A stretch of 64,000 nt of DNA from Candidatus Limnocylindrales bacterium. GTDB lineage: Bacteria; Chloroflexota; Limnocylindria; Limnocylindrales; CSP1-4. Where the stretch lies: positions 4,248 through 68,247 of the forward strand of contig JBQGDI010000058.1 in NCBI GenBank assembly GCA_052038965.1, in the 5' to 3' direction. Both the position numbers and the translations under genes were made by a program. The notes under the pieces are model-generated. The model saw only the letters and a program-made list of their open reading frames with translations. It searched no databases and was not told where the DNA came from. Below, piece after piece: positions 8,644 to 24,019 of this stretch (its first letter is position 1; each line of letters begins with the position of its first letter).

Positions 8644-9867
8644 TCAGCCGGTGGCCCGGTGCTCCTCGGGCTGCCGGAAGAGCGCGAGGGTCCGCCATGC
8701 CGTCCACCCTCCGGCGAGCGTCATGGCCGCGCAGAGGGCGCGGACGCCCCACCACGGCAGGTCCTTCGCCAGGAACGAGGGCAGTGGCAGGATCAGGTAC
8801 GGCGACGTCGCGACGACGTACCACAGCGTCACGAAGAACATCGTGCTGAGCGCGATGAACGGGCCCCGGAGTGACGGCACGAGGACCGCGAGCGGGGCGA
8901 GAAGCGGGATCGCGCCGTACAGGTACCGCTCGTGGACCCGCGTCGGCACGAAGTACAGAGCCAGCGCGACGAGCGAAGCGACGGCGAACAGGCCAACGAG
9001 GTCACGTCGCCGGCGAAGGAGCAGCAGGCTCCCGCCGATCGCCAGCACCGTCGCCGTCGTACCGACGTAGAGCCACGGTCCGTCGACGGTCTCGAAGCCG
9101 AAGAGCAGGCCCCACGGATTGAAGCCGTAGTGGGAGGCGTATGGATAGCGCCCGAACGTGTCCGCGATGATGGCCCGGTAGCCGAGCGGGTCGAGGCCAA
9201 GTGGCAGCAGCACGATCGCGCCGGTCAGCAGGGCCGCGAGCGCGACGATGGCCGCACGGCCGATCCCGTCAGCCGTTCGCAGCCAACCTGCCACGAGCCC
9301 GACGAGGACCATCGCCGCGACGCCGAACTGGGGCTTGACGAGGCCCGCCAGGGCCGCCAGGGCCCCGGCGGCGACGAGACCGCCCGAAGCCGCGGTGACG
9401 ATCGACACGACCATCGGGAGGGCTCCCATGCCGTCGACCTGGCCCCACGCCGGGCCGCTCAGGACGACCGCGGGATTCAGCAGGTATAGCGCCGCCGCCA
9501 CCGGTCCGCCCCCCGCCCCGGCCAGCCGCCGTCCGACGGCAAACAGGACGGCGCCCAACGCCAGGTCGAACGGAATCGACAGGACCCGGATGGCGGCCCA
9601 CAGGGGCGCACCGTCGAACGCCACGCCGAGCGGCCATAGCAGGTACAGCATCGCTGGGTAGTTCGCGTCCCCGCCGGCCGCGTAGTAGCCCCCGAGTCCG
9701 TGCTGCGCGAGGCCCTCGGCCCACTCCTCGAAGGCCTTGACGTCGCCGCCGTGCCCGGTGCCGAGCAGCCCGACCAGGCGGACGACGAGCGCGGCGGTGA
9801 GCACGACGACGAAGGCCCGCGCATCGTCGGCCGGCGACCACGGGACCCGCAGCCGCGGGAGGGTCAT
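8644..9867 (-). CDS. GT-C-fold integral membrane glycosyltransferase (DUF2029/PMT_2-like)
   Basis: 407 aa with about 10 TM segments. The early periplasmic loop has the D-x-K/FEEWAEG-type acidic motif typical of GT-C mannosyl/arabinosyltransferases. 16 nt downstream of kimA1. Confidence 0.65.
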   Translation of the reverse strand: MTLPRLRVPWSPADDARAFVVVLTAALVVRLVGLLGTGHGGDVKAFEEWAEGLAQHGLGGYYAAGGDANYPAMLYLLWPLGVAFDGAPLWAAIRVLSIPFDLALGAVLFAVGRRLAGAGGGPVAAALYLLNPAVVLSGPAWGQVDGMGALPMVVSIVTAASGGLVAAGALAALAGLVKPQFGVAAMVLVGLVAGWLRTADGIGRAAIVALAALLTGAIVLLPLGLDPLGYRAIIADTFGRYPYASHYGFNPWGLLFGFETVDGPWLYVGTTATVLAIGGSLLLLRRRRDLVGLFAVASLVALALYFVPTRVHERYLYGAIPLLAPLAVLVPSLRGPFIALSTMFFVTLWYVVATSPYLILPLPSFLAKDLPWWGVRALCAAMTLAGGWTAWRTLALFRQPEEHRATG

Positions 9868-9883
9868 GGCCGAGCGGTGGCCG

Positions 9884-12022
9884 TCACCGGGAGCCGGCGG
9901 GGTTCGCCGGGACGTGGTCCTCGGGGTGCTCGCGGCGGTAGGGCACGTTGACCACGACCGTGTACGGCCGTCCGAGGAGGGCCGCCCGCAGCCGCTTCGC
10001 GGACTGGTTGTAGAGGATCCGCTCCCACCAGCTCTTCGCGACGTATTCCGGGATCACGACGAACGTGATCGGGGCCTCCTTGTCGGCCGGCCACGCCCGA
10101 TCGAGGACGTCGAGGTAGGCGAGCATCGGCGCGACGAGCGCGCGATAGGGCGATTCGACGATCACGAGCGGCACGTCGGGAATCTGGCGCTCCCAGCGCT
10201 CGCGAACCCTGGCCGCCTCGTCGGGCTCGTCGGAGATGAGCACCGCGCGGACGTCCGGGGCGATGGATCGCCCGACGTTGATCGCCTGGACGACCGCCCG
10301 GTTGATGCCCGGGATCGGCACGATCGCCCGCTCCTCCCGTCGCGGTGCCGGGATCCTGGCGTCGGGCTGGATCGCCAGCTCCCGCGAAGAGGCGGCGTAC
10401 TGCCGGTGGATGAACAGCATCAGCCCGACGAGGATCGGGATGATGACCGCGACGATGAGCGAGGTCGGCGCCTTCGCGACGAGCACGACCACGAACACCA
10501 CGCTCGTGAGTCCCGCCCCGAAGGCGTTGATGCCCAACCGCCATTGCCAGCCCCGTGACCGTTCAGCCAGCCAGTGGCGGACCATGCCGACCTGCCCGAT
10601 CGTGAAAGCCAGGAACACGCCGACGGCGTACAGCGGGACGAGCGCGGTCGTGTGGCCACCGAACAGCACCACGAGCGAGATCGCCGCCACGCTCAGGATC
10701 ACGATCCCGGACGTGAACGCCAACCGATCGCCCCGGAAGCTGAACTGGCGTGGCATGTAGCCGTCGCGGGCGAGGATCGCGCCGAGGCGCGGGAAGGCGT
10801 TGAACGACGTGTTGGCGGCGAGGAAGAGGATCAGCGCGGTGAACGTCTGGAACAGGTAGAAGCCGATCGAGCCGTCACCGTAGGCGACCGCCGCGACCTG
10901 GCTGACGACGGTCTTGGGCGTCGGATGATCGATGGGCACGACTCCGAAGTTCGCGGCGACGAATGTGATCCCGATGAACAGCGTCCCCAGGAGGATCGCC
11001 ATCGCCGTCAGCGTCGCCGCGGCGTTCCGCGACTCCGGCGGCTTGAAGGCCGGGACCCCATTGGCGATCGCCTCGGTTCCGGTGAGGGCGACCGAGCCGG
11101 ACGCGAATGCGCGGAGCACCAGCAGCGCCGTCACGGCCTGCAGCGGCTCGTGCGCGCCGGGCAGGGGCGATGGCGGCATCTGGTGCTCGCCGAGGACGAC
11201 GATTCGGAAGGTCCCGATCGCGATCGCGAGCAGCGCGGACCCGACGAACAGGTACGTCGGGATGGCGAAGATGTTGCCCGATTCGCGGAGCCCGCGGAGG
11301 TTGCCGATCATGATCAGGATGATCGCGACGACCCCGATCTCGACCCGGATGTCTGTGAGAGCCGGGACCGCGGAGATGACCTGCTCGATGGCCGACGAGG
11401 TCGATACCGCGACGGTCATGACGTAGTCGACGAGCAGTGCGGCGGCCACGACGAGCGCCGTGATACCCGGCAGGTTCGCCTTGGCCACGGCGTAGTCGCC
11501 GCCGCCGGACGGGTACGCGTAGACCTCCTGGCGATAGCTGATCGACACGACGGTGAGGAGGAAGCCGATCGCGATCGCGACCGGCAGGCTCAGGAACAGC
11601 GCGCTCGCTCCGGCCAGGACGAGGACCCGCAGGATCTCCTCCGAGGCGTAGGCCGAGGAGCTGATCGCGTCCGAGCTGAAGATCGCGAGGGCCTTGACCT
11701 TCGATAGCCGCTCGGTGATCTCCTCGTGGATCGAGAGCGGGCGGCCGAACAGCATGCCGCGGACTCGGGCCAGCATCCGTCCGAGCCCGGTGCGTGGCGC
11801 CGAGGCGGCCGGCTTGGCGATGAGGGTGCCCTCGCCGCCGTAGCGGAAGTACGCCGCGTGGGGCCGTTCGACCCGAACGCGGCGGTCGCCGAGCTTGCGG
11901 CCCTTGAGCGAGCCGCCGGACGAAGGTGGGGTGTCGCTCACCGTGGGCCGCGGCGGGCGCGCAATTGCATCCGCGAAGGATCGCACGCGCGGCCCGGGGT
12001 CGCATGCGCCACGGCGTCGCAT
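9884..12022 (-). CDS. kimA: KimA-family K+ importer (APC superfamily with C-terminal cytoplasmic domain), paralogue 1
   Basis: Start at ATG 12022 (MRRRGACDP...), 15 nt after the fur stop; the ORF extends upstream in-frame to 12556. Motifs KALAIFSSDAISSSAYASEEI, YRQEVYAYPSGGGDYAVAKANLPG, NLRGLRESG, AFASGSVALTGTEAIANGVPAFKPPESRNAA and C-terminal YNQSAKRLRAALLGRP match my recollection of B. subtilis KimA (YdaO). Confidence 0.85.
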   Translation of the reverse strand: MRRRGACDPGPRVRSFADAIARPPRPTVSDTPPSSGGSLKGRKLGDRRVRVERPHAAYFRYGGEGTLIAKPAASAPRTGLGRMLARVRGMLFGRPLSIHEEITERLSKVKALAIFSSDAISSSAYASEEILRVLVLAGASALFLSLPVAIAIGFLLTVVSISYRQEVYAYPSGGGDYAVAKANLPGITALVVAAALLVDYVMTVAVSTSSAIEQVISAVPALTDIRVEIGVVAIILIMIGNLRGLRESGNIFAIPTYLFVGSALLAIAIGTFRIVVLGEHQMPPSPLPGAHEPLQAVTALLVLRAFASGSVALTGTEAIANGVPAFKPPESRNAAATLTAMAILLGTLFIGITFVAANFGVVPIDHPTPKTVVSQVAAVAYGDGSIGFYLFQTFTALILFLAANTSFNAFPRLGAILARDGYMPRQFSFRGDRLAFTSGIVILSVAAISLVVLFGGHTTALVPLYAVGVFLAFTIGQVGMVRHWLAERSRGWQWRLGINAFGAGLTSVVFVVVLVAKAPTSLIVAVIIPILVGLMLFIHRQYAASSRELAIQPDARIPAPRREERAIVPIPGINRAVVQAINVGRSIAPDVRAVLISDEPDEAARVRERWERQIPDVPLVIVESPYRALVAPMLAYLDVLDRAWPADKEAPITFVVIPEYVAKSWWERILYNQSAKRLRAALLGRPYTVVVNVPYRREHPEDHVPANPAGSR

Positions 12023-12036
12023 TCGCCGCGCGAGAT

Positions 12037-12504
12037 TCAGCGGTCGCGACAGGCCTCGCAGCGGCCCTCGATCGACAGGTGCTCGAGCGAGACCGCGAAG
12101 CCACGCCGCCGCTCGAGGTCCTCGACGAGGGCCACGAGCTCGGATGGCGCCAGGTCCCAGCGTCCACCGCAGGCGGAGCAGACGAGGTGACCGTGCGTGG
12201 CGGATGGGCGGACGTGGAACTCGGTCCGACCGTCGGGCCCGTGGGAGTGGCTGACCAGCCCGAGCTCCTCGAGGACGTCGAGCGTCCGGTAGACCGTCGA
12301 GGGCGTCGTGGACGGATCGATCTGGCGACAGCGATCGACCAGCGTCGCGCCCGTCACGTGGCCGTCGACGCGAGCCAGGACGTCGAGGATGACGCCCCGC
12401 TGGGACGTCCAGCGCAGCCCTCGCTCGTGGAGGCGCCGACGCACCTCCGCCCACCGATCGCCGGGGATCGAGGGCAGCCGACGCGTCGCAGAGCCGGCCG
12501 TCAT
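12037..12504 (-). CDS. Fur-family metalloregulator (candidate Nur/Zur-type)
   Basis: Winged helix plus metal-site cysteines/histidines (RWTSQRGVILDVL...TVYRTLDVLEELGLV...HGHLVCSACG...GRCEAC). Start ATG 12504 overlaps the NiCoT stop as ATGA. Confidence 0.8.
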   Translation of the reverse strand: MTAGSATRRLPSIPGDRWAEVRRRLHERGLRWTSQRGVILDVLARVDGHVTGATLVDRCRQIDPSTTPSTVYRTLDVLEELGLVSHSHGPDGRTEFHVRPSATHGHLVCSACGGRWDLAPSELVALVEDLERRRGFAVSLEHLSIEGRCEACRDR

Positions 12505-13457
12505 GCCCCCAGCCCGAGGCCCCTGAGCCACTCGTCGATCGACGGCAGCCGGGCATCGAGGCCGAGCAGGAAGACCGTGCCGATGACCAGGCTGAAGGTG
12601 CCGGCGACGACGCCGATCACGATGTAGATCCGCTGCCGAAGGCGGCTCGCGATGAAGCCGGTCGCGGTGATGAGGACGACGATCGAGTTCGCGATCAGCA
12701 GCCCGACGATGAACGCGACCATCATCGGGATCCCGAGGCCGTGCTGGGCGGCGCCGCCGATCGCGGCGATGAGCAGGACCTGCGTCCCGGTCTCGGCGCC
12801 GATGCCGTGGATCAGGCCGACCCCGAAGGCCGTCTTCGGGCCGTACGAGCTCATCTCCATCGGGTCGACGTGCTCGTGGCCGTGGAGGCGCGCCTGGAAC
12901 CGGCGCCAGGCGTAGCGAGCCGAGTCGAAGACGAGCATCCAGCGGCTCCGCAGCCGGAACGCGACGCCGTGCCGGGCGTACTGGTAGAGCGAGACGAAGA
13001 CCCAGATCCCGAGAAGGAGCAGCGTCAGCCCGACGATCGGGCCCATGACCTGGTCGACCCAGTCCGGCAGGATCGCCCCGAACAGCAGAGCAAGCAGGCC
13101 GAGGACGGCGACGACGGCGGCGTGGCCCAGCGCGTACAGCGAACCGAGCAGCAGCGCGCGCTTCTGCTCCTCGACCAGGCGCGGCCTCGGTGGGGCCGCC
13201 GGATGGTCGGCGGCTCCGTGCTCCCCGCCGTGGGCCCGGACCTCGGTCGGGCCGCCGTGGGCGTGTTGATGCGGATGCCGGGCAACGTGGACGGCCTCGT
13301 GGCCGAGCTCCGCGGCATCGGCCGTCGCGGTCGTCGATGTGACGTCGGTGATCGCCGCCAGATGGTCCCAGTCGAAGCCGTGCCGGATCCCCAGCACGAG
13401 CGCCGTCGAGATCAGCCCAAGCGCACCGCCGGTCGCCGCATCGGCCAGGAAGTCCAC
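12501..13457 (-). CDS. NiCoT (HoxN/NixA)-family nickel/cobalt permease
   Basis: Signature HX4DH in TM2 (IRHGFDWDHLAAITD), second motif GLIHGIGAETGTQV, His-rich cytoplasmic loop (HVARHPHQHAHGGPTEVRAHGGEHGAADH). Start set at GTG 13457; the ORF continues to a TTG at 13568, which would overlap kimA2 by 52 nt. Confidence 0.8.
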   Translation of the reverse strand: MDFLADAATGGALGLISTALVLGIRHGFDWDHLAAITDVTSTTATADAAELGHEAVHVARHPHQHAHGGPTEVRAHGGEHGAADHPAAPPRPRLVEEQKRALLLGSLYALGHAAVVAVLGLLALLFGAILPDWVDQVMGPIVGLTLLLLGIWVFVSLYQYARHGVAFRLRSRWMLVFDSARYAWRRFQARLHGHEHVDPMEMSSYGPKTAFGVGLIHGIGAETGTQVLLIAAIGGAAQHGLGIPMMVAFIVGLLIANSIVVLITATGFIASRLRQRIYIVIGVVAGTFSLVIGTVFLLGLDARLPSIDEWLRGLGLGA

Positions 13458-13478
13458 GGCGGCATGATCGCCGTTATC

Positions 13479-13493
13479 GCAACAGGTTGCAAC
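13479..13493. promoter_or_regulatory. Candidate Fur-family (Nur-like) operator: GCAAC-AG-GTTGC palindrome inside TTGCAAC-type repeats, 22-36 nt upstream of the NiCoT start
   Basis: Read directly: ..atcGCAACagGTTGCAACaag.. in the 58-nt kimA2-NiCoT spacer. It resembles the tTGCaa-N5-ttGCAA Nur box of Streptomyces. Confidence 0.4.
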
Positions 13494-13515
13494 AAGGGTC
13501 CCACAATGGCTCGCG

Positions 13516-15573
13516 TCAGCCCGCCGTCGCCTCCGCGGTTGCCCGCTCGCGCTGATACGGCACGTCAACGACGACGGTGTGGGGCCGGCCGAGCAGGGCG
13601 CCGCGCAGCCGCTTCGCAGACTGGTTATAGAGCGCCCGCTCCCACCAGTGTTGGGCGACGAACTCCGGAACCACGACGAACGTCACCGGAATGTCGCCCT
13701 CGGCCGATTCGGCCGCGTCGAGGACGTCGAGGTACGCCAGCAGCGGTCCGACGAGGGCCCGGTACGGTGACTCGACGATCACGAGCTCGACGTCCGGCAG
13801 CTGGCGTTCCCAGCGTCCCCGGACCGCCTCGGCGGCGACGGGATCATCCGTCACGAGGACGGCATGGACATCGCGGCCGATGGAGCGACCGACGTTCACG
13901 GCCTGGACGGCCGCCCGATCGAGGCCGGCCACCGGGACGACGATGCGCTCCCGGCGTCGCGGACCCCGGATCACGACGTCGTCGCGCACGGCCAGCTGGC
14001 GAGCGGTCGAGCGGTATTGCCGGCGAATGAAGAGCATCCCGACGATGAGTGCGGGAATGAGGACCAGCACGACCCACGCGCCGAGCATGAACTTCGCCGC
14101 GGCGACTTCGACCGCGACGACGCCGGTCGTGAGTGCCCCGATCCCATTGATGAGCGCCTTCGTCTGCCACCCCGGGGTGCTCGCCCGGTGACGCCACCAC
14201 CGCCGGACCATGCCGCCCTGGCTGAGCGTGAAGGCGACGAACACGCCCACGGTGTACAGCGGGATCAGGCTCGTCACGCTGCCAGCGAAGCCGATCACGA
14301 GCGCGATCGCGACGATCGCCAGCACGACGATCCCGCCGTTGAACGCCAGGCGGTCGCCCCGGAACTGGAAGACCCGGGGCAGGAACGAGTCGCGCGCCAG
14401 GATGCTCGACAGCCTCGGAAAGTCGGCGAACGAGGTGTTGGCGGCCAGGATGAGCAGCACGGCGGTCGATACCTGGATCACGTAATGGAATGGCGTGCCG
14501 CCGCCCACGAACGCGCGCGTGAGCTGGCTGACGACCGTCTCCTGTTCGCTCGGATCCGGCAAGATCCCGAGCTGGCTCGAGAGGAAGCTCATGCCGAGGA
14601 AGATGGCGCCGAAGCAGGCGCCCATGATCACGATCACTCGAGCCGCATTGCGCGCCTCCGGCGGCTTGAACGCCGGCACCCCGTTGGATACCGCCTCGGT
14701 GCCGGTCAGGGCGACCGAGCCGGAGGCGAACGCCCGCAGGATCAGCAGCAACCCGAGCGGCTCGGCGGCGCTCTCGACCCAGCCGGGCGGTGGCGAATTC
14801 GCCGGCATGGTCCCCGTCGCATAGCGCAGTAGGCCGAAGCCCAGGAGCCCGAGCATCGACGCCAGGTAGACGTAGGTCGGTACGCTGAACACGAGGCCGC
14901 TCTCGCGGACGCCTCTGAGGTTGACGAACGCGATCGCCGCGATGAGCCCGGCGCCGAGAACCACGCGAGCCTCGAACAGCTCCGGCCAGATCGACGTCAG
15001 GGCCGCGACGCCGGCGGCGATCGAGACGGCGACGGTGAGGACGTAGTCGGTCAGCAGGGCCGCCGCCGCGGTCAGGCCCGGCAGCGTGCCGAGGTTGTCG
15101 CTGGCCACGATGTACGAACCGCCGCCGCTGGGATAGGCCGCGATCGTCTGGCGGTAACTGGTGACGACGATGGCGAGGACGACGACGATGCCGATCGTGA
15201 TCGGCATCGTGAGCACCAGCGCCCCCGCGCCGGCGAGGACGAGCACCCGCATGATCTCCTCGGTCGCGTATGCCGAGGACGAGATGTTGTCCGACGCGAA
15301 GATCGACAGGCCGGGCACGACGCCCAGCCGTTCGTGCCATTCCTCGTGGTTCGACAGCGGCCGGCCGAAGAGCAGCGCCCTCAGCCGCGACGCGGCCCGG
15401 CCAACTGGGGTGCGCGGTCGCGAGGCCTCGGGCTTCGCGACCAGGGCCCCTCGTCCGACATACCGGAAGAACGGTTCGTGGGGACGGTGCACCCGGACGC
15501 GTCGGTCGCCGGGCTTGCGACCGGCTCGCGCGGTCGGGGCGGGCGAGGCAGGGCTGGAGTCGGACGCGGGCAT
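13516..15573 (-). CDS. kimA: KimA-family K+ importer, paralogue 2
   Basis: Start ATG 15573 (MPASDSS...GRKPGDRRVRVHRPHEPFFRY). Same motif set as paralogue 1 (SIFASDNISSSAYATEEI, YPSGGGSYIVASDNLG, NLRGVRESG, YNQSAKRLRGALLGRP). Confidence 0.85.
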   Translation of the reverse strand: MPASDSSPASPAPTARAGRKPGDRRVRVHRPHEPFFRYVGRGALVAKPEASRPRTPVGRAASRLRALLFGRPLSNHEEWHERLGVVPGLSIFASDNISSSAYATEEIMRVLVLAGAGALVLTMPITIGIVVVLAIVVTSYRQTIAAYPSGGGSYIVASDNLGTLPGLTAAAALLTDYVLTVAVSIAAGVAALTSIWPELFEARVVLGAGLIAAIAFVNLRGVRESGLVFSVPTYVYLASMLGLLGFGLLRYATGTMPANSPPPGWVESAAEPLGLLLILRAFASGSVALTGTEAVSNGVPAFKPPEARNAARVIVIMGACFGAIFLGMSFLSSQLGILPDPSEQETVVSQLTRAFVGGGTPFHYVIQVSTAVLLILAANTSFADFPRLSSILARDSFLPRVFQFRGDRLAFNGGIVVLAIVAIALVIGFAGSVTSLIPLYTVGVFVAFTLSQGGMVRRWWRHRASTPGWQTKALINGIGALTTGVVAVEVAAAKFMLGAWVVLVLIPALIVGMLFIRRQYRSTARQLAVRDDVVIRGPRRRERIVVPVAGLDRAAVQAVNVGRSIGRDVHAVLVTDDPVAAEAVRGRWERQLPDVELVIVESPYRALVGPLLAYLDVLDAAESAEGDIPVTFVVVPEFVAQHWWERALYNQSAKRLRGALLGRPHTVVVDVPYQRERATAEATAG

Positions 15574-15605
15574 GAGGGCGCGATGTGGCCGCCGCGATCC
15601 TTTGG

Positions 15606-17648
15606 TCAAGCGGATGCGCTGGCCGCGGCAGCCGGGCGCTCGCCGCGTCGATATGGGGCATCGACGACGACCGTCTGCGGGCGGCCCAGGAGGGCGCGGC
15701 GGAGTCGGGCGGCCGACTGGTTGTACAGCAGCCCGTCCCACCAGCGCCGAGGCGCGTACTCTGGCAGCACGACATAGGTGAGCACGGCCGCGCCCGCCGG
15801 CTGGCCTTGGTCGAGCAGGTCGAGATACCGGAGCAGCGGATCGACGAGCACCAGCGACGGTGTCTCGATGAGGTCGAGAGGGACGTCCGGGATGCGGTCG
15901 CTCCAGTCGGACCGCATGGCCAGGGCGGCGGCCCGGTCGTCCGAGACCAGGACGGCTCGGACGTCGGTGGCGAGCGACCGGGCGATGTTCTCCGCCTGGA
16001 CGGCCGCACGATCGATCCCGGGCACCGGCACGATGGCCCGCTCCCGTCGGTGCGGCGGTTCGATGACCGCGTCGGCGGGAATGGCGAGGCGGGCCGCGGA
16101 CGCCCGGTACTGTCGGTTGATGAACAGCATCATGCCTACCAGGGCCGGGATGAGGATCACGACCAGGTAGGCACCACCGAAGAACTTCTCGTAGACGACG
16201 ATGGCCAGGACGACGATCGTCAGGATCGCCCCGAGGCCGTTGATGCCGAGCCGGAGCCGCCACCCATCCCCGCGCACCCGCAGCCAGTGCCGGACCATCC
16301 CGACCTGGGACAGCGAGAAGCACACGAACACGCCGACCGCGTACAGCGGGATCAGGAGCGTGGTCGTGCCGGCGAAGAGCGCCACGAGCCCGGCCGCGAT
16401 GGCCGCCAGCAGCACGATCCCCCACGAGTAGGCGAGGCGGTCGCCGCGGAAGCTGAATTGGCGCGGCATGTAGCCGTCGATCGCGAGCAGGTTCGCCAAC
16501 CGTGGGAAGGCGTTGTACGAGGTGTTCGCGGCGAGGAACAGGATCAGCATCGTGGCGACGAGGAACAGCGCGTGGAGGGGCGTGCCGAATCCGTAGACCG
16601 CCCCCGCCACGAGCGAGATGACCGACGGATAACCGCCGACCGACGGCACGACGGCATACGCGATTGCGACGACCGAGATCCCGATGAAGATCACGCCCAG
16701 GAGGACTGCCATGGCGGTCATCGTGTTTGCGGCGTTGCGGGATTCCGGCGGCTTGAAGGCCGGCACGCCGTTGGCAATCGCTTCCACGCCAGTCAGCGCG
16801 ACCGACCCGCTGGCGAACGCCTTGAGGAGCAGCACCAGGGCGAGGGGCTCGAGCCCGAACGATTCGGCGTTCGGCTGCGCCGGCAGCGGGCTGGTGGTCC
16901 CGGTGGCGATGTTGAGGCCGCCGAGGACCACGATGCCGAGCGCCAGCGAGACGAACACGTACGTCGGGACGGCGAAGATGTTCCCGGACTCCCGCAGCCC
17001 CCGCAGGTTCGCGATCGTCATGAGGCTGATGACGATCGCGGCGATCAGGACCTTGTGGGAGCCCGCGGCCGGCGCGAGCGAGGCGAGCTGATCGAGGGCC
17101 GACGAGGTCGACACGGCAACGGTCATGACGTAGTCGATCAGGAGCGCTGCGGCCGCAACCAGGCCCAGGAGTGGGTTGAGCTCCGTTCGGGCGACCGCGT
17201 ACGCTCCGCCGCCGTTCGGGAAGGCCTTGCAGACCTGCCGATAGCTCAGGGCGACGATCGCGAGCAGCAGCGCGATCGCGATCGAAACCTCGATCGATGC
17301 GAACAGCGCAGCCGCACCGGCCAGGACGAGGACCCGCAGGATCTCCTCCGAGGCGTAGGCCGAGGAGCTGATGGCGTCCGAGCTGAAGATCGCGAGGGCC
17401 TTGATCTTGGAGAGGCGCTCGCCGATCTCCTCGTGGATCGACAGCGGCCGACCGAAGAGGATCGCCCGGACCCGGGCGAGCATCCGACCGGGGGCGGTGC
17501 GCGGCGCCGAGGCAGCCGGGCGCGCGACCAGCGTCCCTTCGGCGCCGTACCGGAAGAAGGGCTCATGGGGCCGCGCGACGCGAACGCGTCGGTCCCCGGG
17601 CTTTCGGCCGCGACGCGGCCGCGCGAGTCCTGCTTCGACGGTCTCCAT
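15606..17648 (-). CDS. kimA: KimA-family K+ importer, paralogue 3
   Basis: ATG 17648 (METVEAGLARPRRGRKPGDRRVRVARPHEPFFRY); an alternative GTG lies at 17666. About 75 % identical to paralogue 1 over the N-terminal 100 aa. Confidence 0.85.
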   Translation of the reverse strand: METVEAGLARPRRGRKPGDRRVRVARPHEPFFRYGAEGTLVARPAASAPRTAPGRMLARVRAILFGRPLSIHEEIGERLSKIKALAIFSSDAISSSAYASEEILRVLVLAGAAALFASIEVSIAIALLLAIVALSYRQVCKAFPNGGGAYAVARTELNPLLGLVAAAALLIDYVMTVAVSTSSALDQLASLAPAAGSHKVLIAAIVISLMTIANLRGLRESGNIFAVPTYVFVSLALGIVVLGGLNIATGTTSPLPAQPNAESFGLEPLALVLLLKAFASGSVALTGVEAIANGVPAFKPPESRNAANTMTAMAVLLGVIFIGISVVAIAYAVVPSVGGYPSVISLVAGAVYGFGTPLHALFLVATMLILFLAANTSYNAFPRLANLLAIDGYMPRQFSFRGDRLAYSWGIVLLAAIAAGLVALFAGTTTLLIPLYAVGVFVCFSLSQVGMVRHWLRVRGDGWRLRLGINGLGAILTIVVLAIVVYEKFFGGAYLVVILIPALVGMMLFINRQYRASAARLAIPADAVIEPPHRRERAIVPVPGIDRAAVQAENIARSLATDVRAVLVSDDRAAALAMRSDWSDRIPDVPLDLIETPSLVLVDPLLRYLDLLDQGQPAGAAVLTYVVLPEYAPRRWWDGLLYNQSAARLRRALLGRPQTVVVDAPYRRGERPAAAASASA

Positions 17649-17732
17649 GGCACCAACGTGCGCCACGGACCCAAGAGGGATCGGCGCTCGACAGCAGCTC
17701 CGACCCTTAAGTTCGCCTCAGGTTTCCGACGC

Positions 17733-18455
17733 TCACCCTTCCGGAGCGCGGATGCGGTAGCCGACGCCTGGCTCGGTGACGATCAGGTCACGGAGCGCGC
17801 CCTCGTGGTCGGCCGCCGCCAGCTTGCGACGGAGCTGGCTGACGTGGACGTACACGTAGCTGTCGGCGTCCTGGTAGGCCGTGCCCCAGACCGCCCGCAA
17901 GAGGCGACCCTTCGTCACGATCCGCCCGAGCTCGCCGAGCAGGACGCGCAGGATCTCGAACTCGCGGGGCGTGAGCTCGACCGTCTGGCCGTCGACGAGG
18001 ACCTCGTGGTTAGGGCCATCGAAGACGAGCGGGCCCACACGAATGCGGCCCTGGCTGTCGGCGGCCGGACCCGGTGATCGGCGCAGGGCGACCCGGAGGC
18101 GCGCGTGCAGCTCGTCGAGGCCGAACGGCTTGGTCACGAAGTCGTCGGCACCGAGCTCGAGGGCCTCGACCTTCTCACGCTCGGCGTAGCGGCCGGACAG
18201 GATCACGATCGGCGTGCCCGCGTCGCGTCGAATCCGCCTGATGACTTCGAGCCCGTCGAGGTCGGGCAATCCCAGGTCGAGCAGCACGACGTCAGGCCGC
18301 GATGCCTCCCAGCGCTCGAGGGCCGTGCGCGCGTCGATCGCCTCGACGGTCCGGTAGCCGCGAGCCCCCAGCTCGCGCAGCAGCGCGCGCCGGGTCTCGT
18401 CGTCGTCCTCGACGACCAGCACGGACGGGCCACCCGGGGGCCGCGGGGGGATCAT
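17733..18455 (-). CDS. kdpE: KdpE-like OmpR-family response regulator
   Basis: Receiver (VLVVEDDDETRRAL...LLDLGLPDLDG...LSGRYAEREKVEALELGADDFVTKPFGLDELHARLRVALRR) aligns closely with E. coli KdpE as I recall it. 4-nt overlap with kdpD. Confidence 0.85.
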   Translation of the reverse strand: MIPPRPPGGPSVLVVEDDDETRRALLRELGARGYRTVEAIDARTALERWEASRPDVVLLDLGLPDLDGLEVIRRIRRDAGTPIVILSGRYAEREKVEALELGADDFVTKPFGLDELHARLRVALRRSPGPAADSQGRIRVGPLVFDGPNHEVLVDGQTVELTPREFEILRVLLGELGRIVTKGRLLRAVWGTAYQDADSYVYVHVSQLRRKLAAADHEGALRDLIVTEPGVGYRIRAPEG

Positions 18456-20050
18456 TCCGGCGCGTTGGGCAGCAGCTCCGCCGGCACCGACGCAGCCGGC
18501 AGCAGCAGCTCGATGGCCAGCCCGCCAAGCTCGCTCCGCTGCGCGCTGGCGCGGCCGCCCATCGCCTCGACCAGCCCACGCACGACGGCCAGGCCGAGCC
18601 CGGTCCCACGCGCCGGGGCCGGGTTGCGCCCGCCGCCGTGATCGCGGTCGCCGATGCGGACGAACGGGTCGAAGATGCGCTCCTGCGCCGCCTCGGGCAC
18701 CCCCGGTCCACCATCCTCGACGATCAGCCGGACCATGCCGCTGTCGTCCCGGGACGCGGTGATCCGCACCGTCGCGGCTGCCGGCGCGAACTTGGCAGCG
18801 TTGTCGAGCAGGTTCAGGAGGGCCTGGCCCAGGAGGACCGGATCGACGCGGACGGCCAACGGTGGGACGTCGATGATCATGGGTCGATCGTGGAGCGGCC
18901 CGCCGAACCGTTCGACCGCTTGGCCGACAAGGTCATCGAGCTCGAACACGTCGACGTCGGCCCGCAACGCGCCGGCCTCGATCCGACCCAGGTCCAACAG
19001 GTTGGCCACGAGCCGGTCGAGGTAGCGGACCTGTCGCTCGATCGCCTCGGCGCTCGCCGCGCGGGCCTCGTCGTCCAGGCCACTCTCCGGGCGGAGCGAG
19101 CCGGCCGCCGCGCGGATCGCGGCCAGCGGGGTCCGGAGGTCGTGCGAGACCAGTTGCAGCAGGGCGCTCTTGAGGGCGTCGCTCTGGCGGGCGATCTCGG
19201 CGTCGCGGGCCTCGGTGGCGAGCCGATCCTGGACCAGCAGCTGGCCGATCTGGTCGGCCGCCGCGCCCAGCAGGCGAGTCGCCGACCGATCGGGCAGGGC
19301 CGCGGATCGATCGCGAAGCGCCCAGATGGAGCCGAGCGCATCGCCGCCGGCCTCGATCCGCACGCGATACGTCTCGAGCGGCGCGGTCGCGGCCATCGAG
19401 CGCCCACCCATCCCCGTGTGCACCCGGACCCAGCGGGCCGGCTCATCGCCGGGCATCCGACGAAGGACCTGGTGGAGCCCCGAGGTCGGCGTGCCGGCCC
19501 CGCGACCAGTCGCGGCCTCGCCGGCCCGGGTCGCGACGCGCTCGGCTGCGTCGTCCTCTCCGAGGGCGATCCAGAGCGAGCGCATCTCGGTTGCGGCCCG
19601 CAACAGCTCGGCGAGATCCGGCAGCGCCTCGCGGGTCGAAGATCGCGTCGCGAGCGCCCGGCTGAGCTGGAACAGCTCGCGGGCCTCGCGCTCGCGGGCC
19701 GTTGCCGTGACGGTCTGGGCCCGCTGGAGCGCCGCCAGCTGACCGACGACCAGGCCGACGAACAGGAGCAGGGCGAGGCTCAGCCACTCACCCGGGTCAC
19801 TGATCGTGAACGTGTGGTACGGCTCGGTGAAGAGGTAGTCGTAGGTGGCGATCCCCATGACCGCCGTGGCCACACCGCCCGCGGTCCCGGACAGGAGGGC
19901 CGCCGCGACGACCGCGATCAGGTAGACGGGCGAGGCGTTGGGGATCCCTACGCGCTCCTCGAGCAGCCAGACCAGGGCGGTGGCCCCGACGAGGGTCGGC
20001 AGGGCCACCGCGAGCAGTCGCGCGACCCGGGCGACGCCCAGCTGCGGCAC
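18452..20050 (-). CDS. kdpD: Truncated KdpD-like sensor kinase (DUF4118 4-TM + GAF-like + HisKA + HATPase_c; lacks the N-terminal KdpD and Usp domains)
   Basis: GTG start. Membrane module GIPNASPVYLIAVVAAALL...YDYLFTEPYHTFTI resembles KdpD DUF4118. H-box SHDLRTPLAAI. No 350-aa N-terminal domain and no upstream kdpFABC. Confidence 0.8.
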   Translation of the reverse strand: MPQLGVARVARLLAVALPTLVGATALVWLLEERVGIPNASPVYLIAVVAAALLSGTAGGVATAVMGIATYDYLFTEPYHTFTISDPGEWLSLALLLFVGLVVGQLAALQRAQTVTATAREREARELFQLSRALATRSSTREALPDLAELLRAATEMRSLWIALGEDDAAERVATRAGEAATGRGAGTPTSGLHQVLRRMPGDEPARWVRVHTGMGGRSMAATAPLETYRVRIEAGGDALGSIWALRDRSAALPDRSATRLLGAAADQIGQLLVQDRLATEARDAEIARQSDALKSALLQLVSHDLRTPLAAIRAAAGSLRPESGLDDEARAASAEAIERQVRYLDRLVANLLDLGRIEAGALRADVDVFELDDLVGQAVERFGGPLHDRPMIIDVPPLAVRVDPVLLGQALLNLLDNAAKFAPAAATVRITASRDDSGMVRLIVEDGGPGVPEAAQERIFDPFVRIGDRDHGGGRNPAPARGTGLGLAVVRGLVEAMGGRASAQRSELGGLAIELLLPAASVPAELLPNAPE

Positions 20051-20114
20051 ATGTCGATGCTAGGCCCTCGCGGTGCGATGGTCCGCGGCGCGCCGGGAAC
20101 GGAGCGAACCGAGA

Positions 20115-20366
20115 TCAGTGGCCCTGGCCGGCCTCGCGGACCTGGTCATCGGACGCCGAGCGGCCCTCGCGGTGGCCGTCCGGCGTGGCGCCGCGCTCGG
20201 ACTCGGGCACGGGCCCTCGCGCCGGCCCTGGCTGTGTGGCCACCGCGGACACTCGCCGGTCGCGGCGGCCGAGCCCACCCGGGATCGTCTCGGTTGCACG
20301 CTCGGGCTTGCGGCCGATGTAGGCGCCGGCGTCGCGGCGCGGCTCGGTTTGGCGTCGATCGGTCAT
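20115..20366 (-). CDS. Small hydrophilic hypothetical protein (83 aa) immediately upstream of kdpD
   Basis: ATG 20366 with GGGAGG at 6 nt spacing. Highly charged sequence MTDRRQTEPRRDAGAYIGRKPERATETIPGG..., 64 nt upstream of the kdpD start. Confidence 0.5.
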   Translation of the reverse strand: MTDRRQTEPRRDAGAYIGRKPERATETIPGGLGRRDRRVSAVATQPGPARGPVPESERGATPDGHREGRSASDDQVREAGQGH

Positions 20367-20473
20367 GGGTTGCCTCCCGGGTGTCGGATCCAGGCTCCTA
20401 CCCTGGCGCGCGACCCGCTGACGACGGGACGGTCCCGCGACCCGGTGGCTATCGCGCTCGTTGCAGCCCGGAC

Positions 20474-21634
20474 TCAGGCGAAGAGCCGGCCGTGGGCCCG
20501 CATGACCTCGACCAGCCGGTCGTGGGGCAGGCGGTGCGCGACGATCCCGTCCCGGCCGGTCATCGTCTCGGCGGCGACGAGGGCGTTCGCGATCGCCTCC
20601 TCGGTCGCCTCCACGACCGCCTCGAAGAGCGGGTCGAGGGCCGTGTCGACGAGCGCCCGCAGCTCGACGACGCCGTGCATCGCCGGCGGCGCCTCGCCGG
20701 CCGGCAGGCCGCGGTTGCCGGTGGCGAAGGCGATGAACAGGTCGCCCGACGATGTCGCGCCGAGGCCGCCGGTTCGAGCCAGCCCGAGACCGGCCCGCTG
20801 GGCCAGACGAGCACACTGCCCCGGGAGCAGCGGTGCATCGGTCGCGACGACGACGATGATCGAGCCCTGCCGGCCGGGGGCGATGCCTTCGTCGAAGGCA
20901 ATCCCGCGGCGGGGACTCTCCCATGGCGACGGCACCTCGGTGATCGGGATCGCCTCACCGACGGCCACGCCATCGACCCGGAGCAGCCCGCGACGACCGT
21001 AGTTCGCCTGGACCAGGACGCCGACGGCCCAGCCCCCAAGCCCCGGCGGGATAACCCGCGACGAGGTCCCGATTCCGCCCTTGAACTCATGGCACAGCAT
21101 CCCGGTGCCGCCGCCGACGGAGCCCTCGGCCACCGGTCCCGCGCGAAGGTCGGCCAGCGCGGCGTCGACGTGCTCCGGGCGGACGTGCTGGCCGGCGATG
21201 TCCGACAGCCGCCCGTCCCACGTTTCGCCGACCACCGGCAGCGACCAGGAGGCGGAGCCCGGGGTGCGCGCCCGCGTGGCATGGTTGATGAGGGTGTCCC
21301 GGACGATCCCGAGCGAATGGGTGTTCGTGATGGCGATCGGGCTGTGGAGCAGCCCCGTTTCGCGGATCCACTCGAGGCCGGTCATGTCGCCGTTGCCGTT
21401 GAGGATGTGACAGCCCGCGAACACGGGTTCCGTCCAGATGTCGCCGTCGTGCGGATCGACGACCGTGACCCCGGTGCGGACGGGCCCGCGGCCCACGACG
21501 AGCGGCCCCTCGCCCTCGATGATCGTCGCGTGGCCGACTCGGACACCGGGCACGTCGGTGATCGCGTTGTCCGTCCCCGGCCGACCCTCGCCGATCCGGA
21601 TTCCGAGATCACGCGCCCGAGGCCGACCCAGCAT
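20474..21634 (-). CDS. DmpA/OAT-family (peptidase S58/P1) L-aminopeptidase/D-Ala-esterase-like protein
   Basis: ATG 21634 with GAGGG RBS. About 386 aa with GxGxxGS/T-type self-processing region. 8 nt after the MgtC stop. Confidence 0.8.
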   Translation of the reverse strand: MLGRPRARDLGIRIGEGRPGTDNAITDVPGVRVGHATIIEGEGPLVVGRGPVRTGVTVVDPHDGDIWTEPVFAGCHILNGNGDMTGLEWIRETGLLHSPIAITNTHSLGIVRDTLINHATRARTPGSASWSLPVVGETWDGRLSDIAGQHVRPEHVDAALADLRAGPVAEGSVGGGTGMLCHEFKGGIGTSSRVIPPGLGGWAVGVLVQANYGRRGLLRVDGVAVGEAIPITEVPSPWESPRRGIAFDEGIAPGRQGSIIVVVATDAPLLPGQCARLAQRAGLGLARTGGLGATSSGDLFIAFATGNRGLPAGEAPPAMHGVVELRALVDTALDPLFEAVVEATEEAIANALVAAETMTGRDGIVAHRLPHDRLVEVMRAHGRLFA

Positions 21635-21644
21635 CGGGACGCCC

Positions 21645-22325
21645 TCAGTCGGCGTGCGAGCTGGAGAGGATGTCGACGCCTTCGAGGCGGGAGATCTCCT
21701 CGAGGGCGGCGGCGATCGACGCCGGGGTCCGGCCACGGACGGTGAGATCGGCCCGGTACAGGCTCCGGCCCTGGCGCTGGGTCGCAATCGCGCCGATCTC
21801 CAGCTTCTCGCCTCGGAGGATCGCGGTGACCTGTCCCAGCAGGTCCACGCGGTCCATCTGGAGGCGGAGCTGCAGCTCCGGCTGTGCGGTGCCGTGGAGG
21901 CGCTCGGCGAGCGCGTTGATTGGCCACAGGCTGACGAGGATGACCGCCGCCGCGACGGTGGCGATGACATGCTCTCCGGCCCCGGCCGCCATGCCGACCG
22001 CGGAGGTCGCCCAGAGGCTCGCGGCGGTCGTGAGGCCGCGGATGACGATCCCGTCCTTGAGGATCGCGCCCGCACCGAGGAAGCCAATGCCGGACACGAT
22101 CTGGGCCGCGATCCGGGTCGGGTCGATGGGCGCCGCCACGGTCCCGCCTTCGAACCCGTGGGCCGACAGCACGGTGAACAGGGCCGAGCCGAGGGCCACC
22201 AGCATGTGCGTCCGGAGGCCCGCGGGGTGGCCGTGGATCTCCCGCTCGAAGCCGATCCCGAGGCCGAGCAGGCTGGCGATGATGAGCCGGACTGAGAGAT
22301 CGAGCTGGAGGCCGACGTCGATCAT
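21645..22325 (-). CDS. mgtC: MgtC/SapB-family membrane protein
   Basis: N-terminal 4-5 TM MgtC domain (LIIASLLGLGIGFEREIHGHPAGLRTHMLVALGSALFT) plus C-terminal ACT-like domain. Start ATG 22325. Confidence 0.8.
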   Translation of the reverse strand: MIDVGLQLDLSVRLIIASLLGLGIGFEREIHGHPAGLRTHMLVALGSALFTVLSAHGFEGGTVAAPIDPTRIAAQIVSGIGFLGAGAILKDGIVIRGLTTAASLWATSAVGMAAGAGEHVIATVAAAVILVSLWPINALAERLHGTAQPELQLRLQMDRVDLLGQVTAILRGEKLEIGAIATQRQGRSLYRADLTVRGRTPASIAAALEEISRLEGVDILSSSHAD

Positions 22326-22444
22326 CGGCTGGGCCGTCGCGGTCGAGCGGGCTCGTGATGTGCCATCGCAGCATGATGGCGCAGTCGGCCACGGGCCGGG
22401 AGGCCGACACGGAGCCGTCATCTCGATGATCTAGGCTCCCGGGC

Positions 22445-24019
22445 GTGACGAATCCCCCGGTGATGAGACGCGCGATGCTGGCCGGTGGCCTCGCCGTCGC
22501 CGCGGCGCTCGGGATCGGCGAGCTCGCGGCCGGTGCGCTGCCGGGTGTGCCCTCCCCCATCCTCGCCGTCTCGCGCCTGATCGTCGACGTCCAGCCGCCG
22601 GGTGCGAAGGACCTGTTCGTCGCGCTCTTCGGCACGGCCGACAAGATCGCCCTCCAGGTGCTGATCGTCGTCGTCGCGCTCGCGATCGGGGCTGGCCTCG
22701 GGCGACTCGCGCTGACGCGGCTGGCGACCGCCGGCGCCGTGATCGCCGCGTTCGTCGGGTTCGGGTTCATCGCCACGCTGCGCGACCCGGATGCCCAGCC
22801 CACGCTCGCCGTCGCGGCCGCGGCGTTGCAGGCGGTCGCCGGCATCGAGCTGCTGCGGCGGCTCGTCGCGCTGGCCCGCGCCGACGGCGAGGGCGCCCCG
22901 GCGCCCGATGCTGCGGGCTCGGGGGGCATGCCCGACTGGGGCCGCCGGGCGTTCCTGCGCTGGTCGGGCGTCGTCGCGGTCGGATCGGTCACCGCGCTGA
23001 CCGTCGGCCGGGCCTTGGTCGAAGGACGGGGCGCCCCGCCGCCCAGTGGCACGGACCTACCCATTCCCACGCCGCCGGTGCCGGCCGAACTGCCGGACGG
23101 GGTCGACCTCGCCACGCCGGAGCTCGCGACCGCCGGCCTCAGCCCGATCGTCGTGCCGAACGACGACTTCTACCGGATCGACACGGCCTTCATCGTCCCG
23201 GTCGTCGATCGCGACGGCTGGTCGCTGAAGGTCACCGGCCTCGTCGACCGCGAGATCGAGTTGACCTGGGATGAGCTCGTCGCCCTGCCGATCGTCGAGC
23301 AGTACGTCACGATCGCCTGCGTCTCGAACGAAGTGGGTGGCGGGCTGGTCGGCAATGCCGCCTGGACGGGCGTCCCACTCCGGACGGTCCTCGACTTGGC
23401 TGGCCTGAAACCCGAGGCGGACCAGCTCGTCGGGCGCTCGTATGACGGCTTCTCCGCCGGGATGCCGGTCGAGTGGGTCCTGGACGAGTCGCGGGAGCCG
23501 CTCATCGCGATCGGGATGAACGGCCAGCCACTCCCGCGCGACCACGGCTATCCCGCCCGACTGATCGTGCCCGGGCTGTACGGCTACGTCTCAGCCACGA
23601 AGTGGCTCACCGAGCTGGAGCTCACCACCTTCCGGGACTACCAGGCGTTCTGGATCACCCGGGGCTGGGCCGAGCGTGCCCCGATCCTGACCCAGTCGCG
23701 GATCGACGTCCCGCGACACAACGCGACCATTCGAGCCGGGCGCGTGGCGGTGGCCGGGGTGGCCTGGGCGCCGGACCGGGGCGTGGAGCGGGTCGAAGTC
23801 CGGGTCGATGACGGCGAGTGGCGCGAGACCCGCCGTTCGGCCGCGATCTCCGACGCGACCTGGGTCCAATGGCTGCTCGAGTGGGACGCGACCCCGGGCG
23901 CCCACCAGCTCGAGGTCCGGGCGATGGACGGGACCGGCGAGGCCCAGGCCGAGAAGCCGAGCAGACCCTTCCCGGACGGCGCCCGCGGCTACCACCGGAT
24001 CGCGGTCACCGTTGCCTGA
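22445..24019 (+). CDS. Membrane-anchored molybdopterin-dependent oxidoreductase (sulfite-oxidase/YedY-MsrP family)
   Basis: N-terminal TM region, then Oxidored_molyb core (YVTIACVSNEVGGGLVGNAAWTGVPL) and a C-terminal Ig-like dimerisation domain. Confidence 0.8.
   Translation: MTNPPVMRRAMLAGGLAVAAALGIGELAAGALPGVPSPILAVSRLIVDVQPPGAKDLFVALFGTADKIALQVLIVVVALAIGAGLGRLALTRLATAGAVIAAFVGFGFIATLRDPDAQPTLAVAAAALQAVAGIELLRRLVALARADGEGAPAPDAAGSGGMPDWGRRAFLRWSGVVAVGSVTALTVGRALVEGRGAPPPSGTDLPIPTPPVPAELPDGVDLATPELATAGLSPIVVPNDDFYRIDTAFIVPVVDRDGWSLKVTGLVDREIELTWDELVALPIVEQYVTIACVSNEVGGGLVGNAAWTGVPLRTVLDLAGLKPEADQLVGRSYDGFSAGMPVEWVLDESREPLIAIGMNGQPLPRDHGYPARLIVPGLYGYVSATKWLTELELTTFRDYQAFWITRGWAERAPILTQSRIDVPRHNATIRAGRVAVAGVAWAPDRGVERVEVRVDDGEWRETRRSAAISDATWVQWLLEWDATPGAHQLEVRAMDGTGEAQAEKPSRPFPDGARGYHRIAVTVA

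Follow-up and report, generated by a model that had tools for sequence, protein, structure and literature searches.

A short KdpD-type kinase and a KdpE-like regulator beside tandem KimA-type symporter genes in a Limnocylindria bacterium: a candidate potassium-uptake cassette

The two-component pair formed by KdpD and KdpE is the textbook sensor of K+ limitation and is seen as the regulator of the Kdp ATPase. Control of a second kind of K+ importer, KimA, is known to run through cyclic di-AMP (c-di-AMP), which acts both via a riboswitch and by direct binding to the transporter. Here, we describe a locus in which relatives of KdpD and KdpE stand directly upstream of two KimA-type genes. It lies within a 64,000-nt stretch of contig JBQGDI010000058.1 from a Candidatus Limnocylindrales bacterium, referred to below as the window, which has a G+C content of 72% and the nearest relatives of which are metagenome-assembled Chloroflexota of the class Limnocylindria. 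Our analysis, carried out wholly in silico, points to a K+-uptake cassette in which a KdpD-type sensor and a KdpE-like regulator would control kimA1 and kimA2 via a repeat upstream of kimA1, a reading to which we give a probability of roughly 60%. On the minus strand, read 5' to 3', the genes run MgtC, a Peptidase_S58/DmpA protein, an open reading frame (ORF) of 83 amino acids (aa), kinase, regulator, KimA1, KimA2, a NicO-like protein, a Fur-family factor and KimA3; the genes named in the original prediction for this DNA lie where it had placed them. All of these parts come from known families, and the novelty lies in how they are wired, in the minimal sensor and in the altered specificity of the regulator. 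A literature search returned no report of KdpD/KdpE-type control of KimA or KUP transporters, and the literature linking DUF4118 or Limnocylindria with potassium likewise held no description of such wiring; the coverage of these searches was incomplete and an earlier mention may exist.

In Escherichia coli, KdpD integrates several signals, and its proposed K+-sensing sites have been placed in the transmembrane (TM) and GAF domains (PMC11018627). The N-terminal domain of KdpD phosphorylates KdpB as an atypical serine kinase, and split variants exist in which a TM/GAF/DHpCA kinase is accompanied by a separate KdpD/Usp protein, in species that possess Kdp (PMC11018627). The kinase encoded in the window (18452..20050, minus strand, 532 aa) begins at the membrane module. 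Pfam recognises DUF4118 (PF13493, 1.3e-23), HisKA (1e-14) and HATPase_c (1e-23), and detects neither the KdpD N-terminal domain (PF02702, the Ser-kinase domain with Walker A/B motifs) nor a Usp domain (PF00582) anywhere in the protein; except for Usp, these outcomes had been anticipated in the original prediction. An AlphaFold model (predicted local distance difference test, pLDDT, 83) contains four membrane helices, an alpha/beta GAF-like domain, a DHp hairpin and a catalytic domain. The GAF-like region (residues ~139-250) is modelled at a pLDDT of ~90 as a helix and a six-stranded sheet lying between the four-helix membrane module and the DHp helix, and it also aligns with the KdpD model. 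When the whole protein was used in a fold search the top match was a GAF-PHY-HK phytochrome, a ranking that is dominated by the generic kinase core. The four-helix DUF4118 module, the HisKA/HATPase core and, going by the model, a GAF-like domain are shared with E. coli KdpD, and the protein matches the KdpD fragments 6lgq and 2ksf in the PDB, the latter being the TM-domain structure. H303 and the N and G boxes are invariant in our kinase alignment (A2).

Profile comparison, proposed earlier as a check on whether this is a KdpD at all, gave an answer in two parts. The kinase is colinear with positions 403-886 of the 895-position NCBIfam KdpD model (NF007793), but it scores 207 bits against an equivalog cut-off of 1123, and it fails formal KdpD membership because the N-terminal half is missing. 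It is not isolated in this respect: when 1.8 billion representative proteins were searched, ~110 clusters of kinases of 500-550 aa outranked the first full-length KdpD (911 aa, 33% identical to the window kinase and aligned at 406-893), which places the window kinase in a sizeable short subfamily. Proteins of this type are labelled 'KdpD' in sequence databases. Given that the N-terminal domain of KdpD phosphorylates KdpB, the half that has been lost here is exactly the half whose known job targets the Kdp pump. The TM/GAF/DHpCA architecture, as modelled, is shared with the described split and short KdpD variants, but those belong to Kdp regulation in Kdp-bearing species (Silberberg et al. 2024, PMC11018627), whereas the short kinase is found with KimA here and in 7/7 sampled relatives, with no KdpD-N/Usp protein or Kdp gene nearby.

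The partner of the kinase (17733..18455, minus strand), the gene for which overlaps that of the kinase by 4 nt, is an OmpR/PhoB-family response regulator with REC and Trans_reg_C domains in Pfam and the phospho-acceptor Asp present. As with E. coli KdpD, then, the kinase is paired with an OmpR-family protein whose best structural match is KdpE: among PDB entries E. coli KdpE comes first at 152 bits and 39% identity, against 142 bits for RegX3. It differs from KdpE in having Tyr, residue 200 of its 240 aa, at the position of Arg193, a residue that only KdpE orthologues conserve and that is placed so as to contact bases (PMC3264566). On these comparisons the regulator is KdpE-like and is no KdpE equivalog.

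The next two genes encode the presumed targets. KimA1 (15606..17648, minus strand; 680 aa counted from the ATG at 17648), KimA2 (13516..15573) and a more distant third copy, KimA3 (9884..11941, 685 aa), are homologues of the K+/H+ symporter KimA, so the target would be a K+ importer, as it is for E. coli KdpDE, but a secondary symporter of the KUP family instead of a P-type ATPase. In phmmer, KimA1 matches Bacillus subtilis KimA (PDB 6S3K) at E=1.2e-119, residues 65-673 aligning with 4-604, a span that opens with the first transmembrane helix, takes in the 12-TM LeuT-fold domain and closes where the cytoplasmic domain does. All three copies match the B. subtilis protein over their full length, at 39-42% identity, and are 54-60% identical to one another, KimA2 and KimA3 being 54% and 60% identical to KimA1. 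The roles of individual KimA residues are known from cryo-EM, simulation and mutagenesis (PMC6994465, PMC10284832), and the K+-binding and gating residues D36, Y43, T121, S125, T230 and Y377, the tunnel residues D117, Y118 and N237 and the H+-coupling residue E233 are identical in KimA1, KimA2 and KimA3. If the permeases were instead transporters of amino acids, polyamines or other substrates of the APC superfamily, as might be thought from Pfam, where AA_permease_2 is the sole match above threshold and K_trans is weak, one would have to explain why 6S3K, cytoplasmic domain included, is the sole PDB match of KimA1 at E<=1, why NCBIfam amino-acid transporter models reach ~18 bits, and why all ten residues of the K+/H+ pathway persist in paralogues of such modest mutual identity; we regard this alternative as extremely unlikely. 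The original assignment of all three permeases to the KimA family is therefore upheld, and the test set for it beforehand (a better match to amino-acid APC transporters, with the K+ residues missing) came out in favour of KimA.

The likeness to B. subtilis KimA (encoded by kimA, also ydaO) extends from the transporter family, the C-terminal cytoplasmic domain and the K+/H+ residues to most of the c-di-AMP pocket, five of the six residues of which are kept (R337, P479, N580, Q581 and S582), the difference being that H579 is Tyr here. Control of transcription is where the two systems appear to part: no ydaO riboswitch lies upstream of the genes described here, and transcription seems to be governed by a two-component system. 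The c-di-AMP riboswitch RF00379 stands directly 5' of kimA in 4/6 Firmicutes loci recovered by the same genome scan that is described below (L031, L050, L055 and L059), and Rfam finds none in the window or in seven related Chloroflexota loci; across the window as a whole no Rfam family, c-di-AMP riboswitch or other, reaches threshold. A further difference is an N-terminal extension of ~60 aa, absent from B. subtilis KimA and present in all three copies (17460-17648, 15390-15573 and 11760-11941, minus strand). It carries a conserved basic motif, GRK(P/L)GDRRVRVxRPHxP(F/Y)FRY, which in the form GRKPGDRRVRV sets these proteins apart from their B. subtilis counterpart, and database matches that begin as early as the extension come nearly all from Chloroflexota, together with a few Nitrospira and Acidobacteriota metagenome-assembled genomes (MAGs).

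E. coli KdpE recognises TTTATA-N5-TTTACA, with protection over -72..-50 (PMC3264566). Upstream of kimA1 we find a direct repeat, CCTGAG-N5-CTTAAG (17706..17722, minus strand), which occupies -74..-58 from the kimA1 ATG and which we predict to be the binding site of the regulator. The two systems would thus have in common a pair of 6-bp half-sites set 11 bp apart at a similar distance from the gene, and would differ in the half-site sequence as they do in the residue at the Arg193 position. The half-sites begin at -74 and -63, directly after the regulator stop codon (the repeat overlaps the stop in several loci), and theirs is the sole match to YTDAG-N6-YTDAG in the 64 kb. The repeat is kept at the same place in L001-L004, L007 and L013, TTGAG or TTTAYA repeats taking its place in other clades; in the low-G+C Anaerolineae and Acidobacteriota cassettes these are TTTAYA-type repeats, upstream of a TATACT-like -10 element. 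Direct repeats with an 11-bp period upstream of a promoter that has a weak -10 and no recognisable -35 are also seen in PhoB/OmpR-type activation, but pho boxes replace the -35 whereas the repeat described here lies farther upstream (-74..-58), as for KdpE.

When 11 loci were aligned between -80 and the start codon (A4), the invariant columns are confined to the two half-sites, a CCTCTTGG element, an NAnnnT hexamer and the start codon itself. The hexamer, CACGTT in the window (17655..17660, minus strand, -12..-7), has an invariant A at position 2 and an invariant T at position 6, and the start codon invariantly follows 6 nt downstream. We predict this to be an activator-dependent promoter, and the position of a -10-like hexamer 6 nt before the ATG would imply a leaderless kimA1 mRNA. 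It also indicates that kimA1 probably starts at ATG 17648 and not at GTG 17666, a codon which was rejected as the start because other loci do not keep it and because the conserved -10-like element would then fall 3' of it. With the start at 17648 the spacer between regulator and kimA1 is 84 nt, and the 66 nt reported earlier depended on the GTG; the 32 nt reported between KimA1 and KimA2 is exact, and this spacing suggests that kimA2 is probably co-transcribed with kimA1. The CCTCTTGG element (17671..17678, minus strand; -30..-23, A4 columns 51-58) is invariant or nearly so, and the 25-26 nt between it and the repeat are conserved in length and not in sequence, its first position lying 33 nt past -63, where the second half-site begins. 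It was set aside as a -35 element, as it stands only 10 nt from the -10-like hexamer.

The kinase gene shows the same geometry, with a better hexamer: TAGCAT (20057..20062, minus strand) precedes its GTG start by 6 nt, and TA(C/G)(G/C)AT followed by 6 nt and a start codon recurs before the kinase in six loci (the window, L001-L004 and L013), in the forms TAGCAT or TACGAT with GTG as the start. This suggests that the kinase-regulator pair has a separate, predicted leaderless promoter with a better -10 than that of kimA1. Unlike the target of KdpE in E. coli, kimA1 lies 3' of the regulator gene, behind what would be its own, probably leaderless promoter. A TAnnnT-like hexamer placed exactly 6 nt before the start codon is thus seen at both predicted promoters (starts 20050 and 17648) in the window, L001-L004 and L013. 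The pattern suggests that leaderless mRNAs are common in the lineage. A search for a second regulator repeat 5' of the genes for the kinase, KimA3, Fur and MgtC yielded nothing beyond chance, even allowing three mismatches.

The comparisons above establish what the genes are, that the K+/H+ residues and the cassette are conserved, and that the promoter architecture, with the repeat and its position, is conserved too; the following mechanism is consistent with them. The minimal KdpD-type kinase would read K+ status through its membrane/GAF module and phosphorylate the KdpE-like regulator, which in its phosphorylated state would bind CCTGAG-N5-CTTAAG at about -74..-58. The bound regulator would then activate the weak and probably leaderless kimA1 promoter, and kimA1 with the co-transcribed kimA2 would supply two KimA-type K+/H+ symporters. 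The sensor pair would be expressed from its own promoter with the better -10 element, the KimA proteins may in addition be inhibited by c-di-AMP at the protein level, and KimA3 probably has a regulation of its own. This third copy lies probably outside the circuit because it lacks an upstream repeat and has the Fur-family gene ahead of it.

If the arrangement is meaningful it should recur, and the original prediction had proposed a synteny check in relatives. A KimA alignment, scanned once against 185,579 species genomes, gave 80 KimA loci from many phyla, of which ~15 have a DUF4118 kinase and an OmpR regulator within ~1.3 kb of KimA; in one additional locus (L023) the pair lies ~6 kb away. 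These cassettes come from Limnocylindria (L004, L007, L009, L013 and L014), other Chloroflexota (L019, L024 and L025), Ktedonobacteria (L032 and L023), Anaerolineae (L075 and L077), Acidobacteriota (L048 and L066) and an actinobacterium (L069). The pair is divergent from KimA in L009 and L014 and sits between two KimA genes in L024, and the KimA1-KimA2 tandem is found again in L004 and L013. A second sample was centred on the kinase, using contigs picked solely by length, and there the order kinase, regulator, (small ORF), KimA was present on every contig (3/3 from Limnocylindria and 4/4 from Anaerolineae) with otherwise unrelated flanks, which in Anaerolineae consist of a polyketide synthase, a hydrogenase/complex-I cluster or ABC transporters. 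The cassette therefore recurs across phyla, both co-directionally and divergently and amid unrelated neighbours, as the proposed check had looked for.

The window contains no Kdp gene, and the P-type ATPase signature DKTGT[LIV]T occurs in none of its frames, which bears out the claim that no kdpFABC lies beside the locus; to speak of KimA 'instead of Kdp' is valid for the 64-kb window and not for the genome. This leaves room for an expanded regulon, in which kdpFABC is encoded elsewhere, perhaps together with a separate KdpD-N/Usp serine-kinase protein, and the short kinase and its regulator control both the pump and KimA. Such an arrangement would suit the split KdpD architectures described in species with Kdp (PMC11018627), and one locus, L083, does hold KimA genes and kdpABC in a single neighbourhood. 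In a further locus, from an uncultured actinobacterium (L069, 6633-11857), a full-length KdpD of 838 aa (PF02702, Usp, DUF4118 and GAF_3) and a KdpE are divergent from KimA over 175 bp, with no Kdp ATPase genes in the 17.9-kb locus; an N-terminal domain of this kind would be pointless without KdpB. Our view of the present genome is itself 64 kb wide. Set against this, the short kinases examined have no Kdp gene closer than 7-10 kb, as far as the contigs extend, the window has a single repeat, and the part of KdpD that has gone is precisely the one directed at KdpB, as would suit a system that works without KdpB. On balance we consider the expanded regulon unlikely, whilst taking it seriously. 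We are also tentative, at odds somewhat short of even, about the stronger proposal that Limnocylindria and, independently of them, Anaerolineae, Ktedonobacteria and Acidobacteriota have no Kdp pump, and that a minimal KdpD (TM/GAF/HK only) with a KdpE-derived regulator serves there as a dedicated low-K+ switch for KUP-family symporters, forming a widespread and unrecognised K+ regulon to which automatic annotation wrongly gives the name 'KdpD'.

The connection between the sensor pair and KimA is drawn from sequence, and it could be that there is no regulatory link, with the pair regulating other genes and the kimA1 repeat being either bound by a different protein or non-functional. That the kinase gene has no repeat upstream, and that CCTCTTGG reveals other conserved signals in the same promoter, would be in keeping with this. 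However, the genes stay adjacent in different phyla, orientations and gene contexts, the repeat is built like an OmpR-family site and placed much as for KdpE, and its location is far from random. Of 11 TTGAG-N6-TTGAG sites in 1.38 Mb of searched sequence, 9 fall within 450 nt upstream of KimA on the same strand, a region that makes up 1.5% of that sequence (binomial P=2e-15), and the TTGAG repeat is found 5' of KimA even where the kinase pair is 6 kb off (L023) or is not on the contig (L027 and L082). The repeat type also follows the recognition-helix residue of the regulator. Arg at the R193 position goes with TTTAYA half-sites (E. coli, L048, L066, L075 and L077), His with (C/G/A)TTGAG (L009, L019, L024, L025, L032 and L023) and Tyr with CCTGAG/CTTAAG (the window, L001-L004, L007 and L013), so that half-site and residue appear mostly to change together. 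Where TTGAG repeats were predicted from the residue type in divergent loci they were found, in L014 and, as CTTGAC/CTTGAG, in L009. A coincidental neighbourhood is accordingly unlikely, as is a substrate other than K+, and the complete lack of a link we judge to be very improbable. Taken together, the recurring cassette, the KdpE-style repeat at a KdpE-like distance, the covariation and the L069 pair lend support to the idea, put forward in the original prediction, that a KdpDE-type system has been rewired to KimA importers.

Several of our results nevertheless count against the proposed control of kimA1-kimA2 by a K+-sensing pair, and need to be considered alongside it. The covariation involves two residue changes only and is not perfect, given that L069 keeps Arg and its intergenic repeat is TTCTTAG/TTCTTCG and not TTTAYA. 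The CCTCTTGG element is identical in loci with different regulator types; a third half-site, a promoter element of an uncommon kind and a site for some other factor are all candidates for it. A scan of 9500-22600 for E. coli-type promoters found none, and a terminator scan of the same interval gave two terminator-like sites only, which is chance level, both within genes. Many close homologues of KimA have neither the kinase pair nor the repeat, although KimA genes without such neighbours would fit an inducible copy that exists beside differently regulated ones. The earlier statement that the regulator matches KdpE closely was too strong: KdpE is its best NCBIfam match (NF007820) by a narrow margin, 169.9 bits against 168.6 for MtrA, with a KdpE cut-off of 325 and an identity to E. 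coli KdpE of 39%. For the kinase, the expected GAF_3 domain is not significant in Pfam, and it is the AlphaFold model that provides the GAF-like fold.

The nature of the stimulus also deserves attention: K+ is the presumed signal, and osmolarity, pH or another cation may stand in its place. The two-component system might control kimA1-kimA2 in response to osmolarity or ionic strength, pH, NH4+ or Mg2+. DUF4118 kinases other than KdpD are uncharacterised, and even E. coli KdpD, as noted, combines several inputs (PMC11018627). MgtC is a conserved upstream neighbour in the lineage of the window, and an ammonium transporter (Amt) and a Na+/H+ exchanger lie near the L023 cassette, which together hint at a wider ion physiology. 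Against another cue, the targets are K+ importers with intact K+ sites, the kinase keeps the TM/GAF module in which the K+-sensing sites of KdpD are placed (PMC11018627), and MgtC does not accompany the cassette in other clades. We therefore consider a cue other than K+ to be doubtful, and a K+-responsive cassette remains the reading we prefer.

If this reading is correct, the joining of a KdpD-type sensor to KimA would add a third kind of wiring to those known for K+ homeostasis. It would agree with the 2024 work in which the N-terminal half of KdpD was found to serve KdpB phosphorylation, that half being missing here and no KdpB being nearby, and mechanistic studies would gain a K+-sensing kinase that is minimal by nature. 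Many metagenomic 'KdpD' calls in the abundant Chloroflexota of soil and fresh water, which now imply a Kdp system, would need to be corrected. On the stronger proposal, nature would have recorded the co-evolution of regulator and DNA specificity in the series from R to H to Y, with its TTTAYA, TTGAG and CTKRAG half-sites, and the residue/half-site pairs form a directly testable specificity series for DNA recognition by the OmpR family.

Turning to the remaining genes of the locus, the three upstream neighbours reported earlier were confirmed as MgtC (21645..22421, PF02308), a Peptidase_S58/DmpA protein (20474..21634) and the small 83-aa ORF (20118..20366, no Pfam match), all on the minus strand. 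The C-terminus of the last (…DDQVREAGQGH) recurs 5' of the kinase in L003 and L013, which makes it probably a real small gene. The block as a whole (20118..22421) is present in L001-L004 and L013 and is not with the cassette in L007, L009, L019, L024 or L084-L087, and so it represents a lineage-specific upstream context. Downstream of KimA2, the third paralogue was correctly placed, starting 1574 nt past the end of the second, whilst the two genes between them had been overlooked. One encodes a membrane protein with a weak NicO/NicT-like match (12501..13568, minus strand), which has homologues at the same position in L002, L003 and L004 and probably lies outside the circuit, and the other, directly upstream of KimA3, is the Fur-family transcription factor (12037..12531, minus strand; PF01475, 4e-20). 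The Fur-KimA pair is found again in L003, in a block composed of a 311-aa protein, Fur, KimA and a GT87-like protein.

Some of the related loci have features of their own. In the Bifidobacteriaceae MAG locus L083 (7928-20221) the genes encode KimA, KimA, an H+-pyrophosphatase, a 258-aa DUF4118-only protein, KdpA, KdpB and KdpC, so that the DUF4118 module stands alone, without a kinase, beside both kinds of K+ importer. In the Ktedonobacterales MAG locus L023 (1866-12034) the short kinase and regulator are divergent from genes for the Na+/H+ exchanger, a TPR protein, the ammonium transporter and KimA, with the TTGAG repeat immediately before KimA. The intergenic repeat of L069 reads TTCTTAGCGCG/TTCTTCGCGCG. 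In L013 (5470-7479) the KimA1 orthologue is split over two frames, its N-terminal 270 codons being out of frame with the rest, which reflects either an assembly error or a pseudogene. Between regulator and KimA, other Chloroflexota (L007, L009, L024 and L025) have an ORF of ~90-130 aa that has no equivalent in the window, and in Anaerolineae the corresponding position, 3' of the repeat, is taken by a conserved protein of 203 aa that has membrane helices at its C-terminus and matches nothing in Pfam (L084 9202-9813, L085 9269-9880 and L087 9329-9940).

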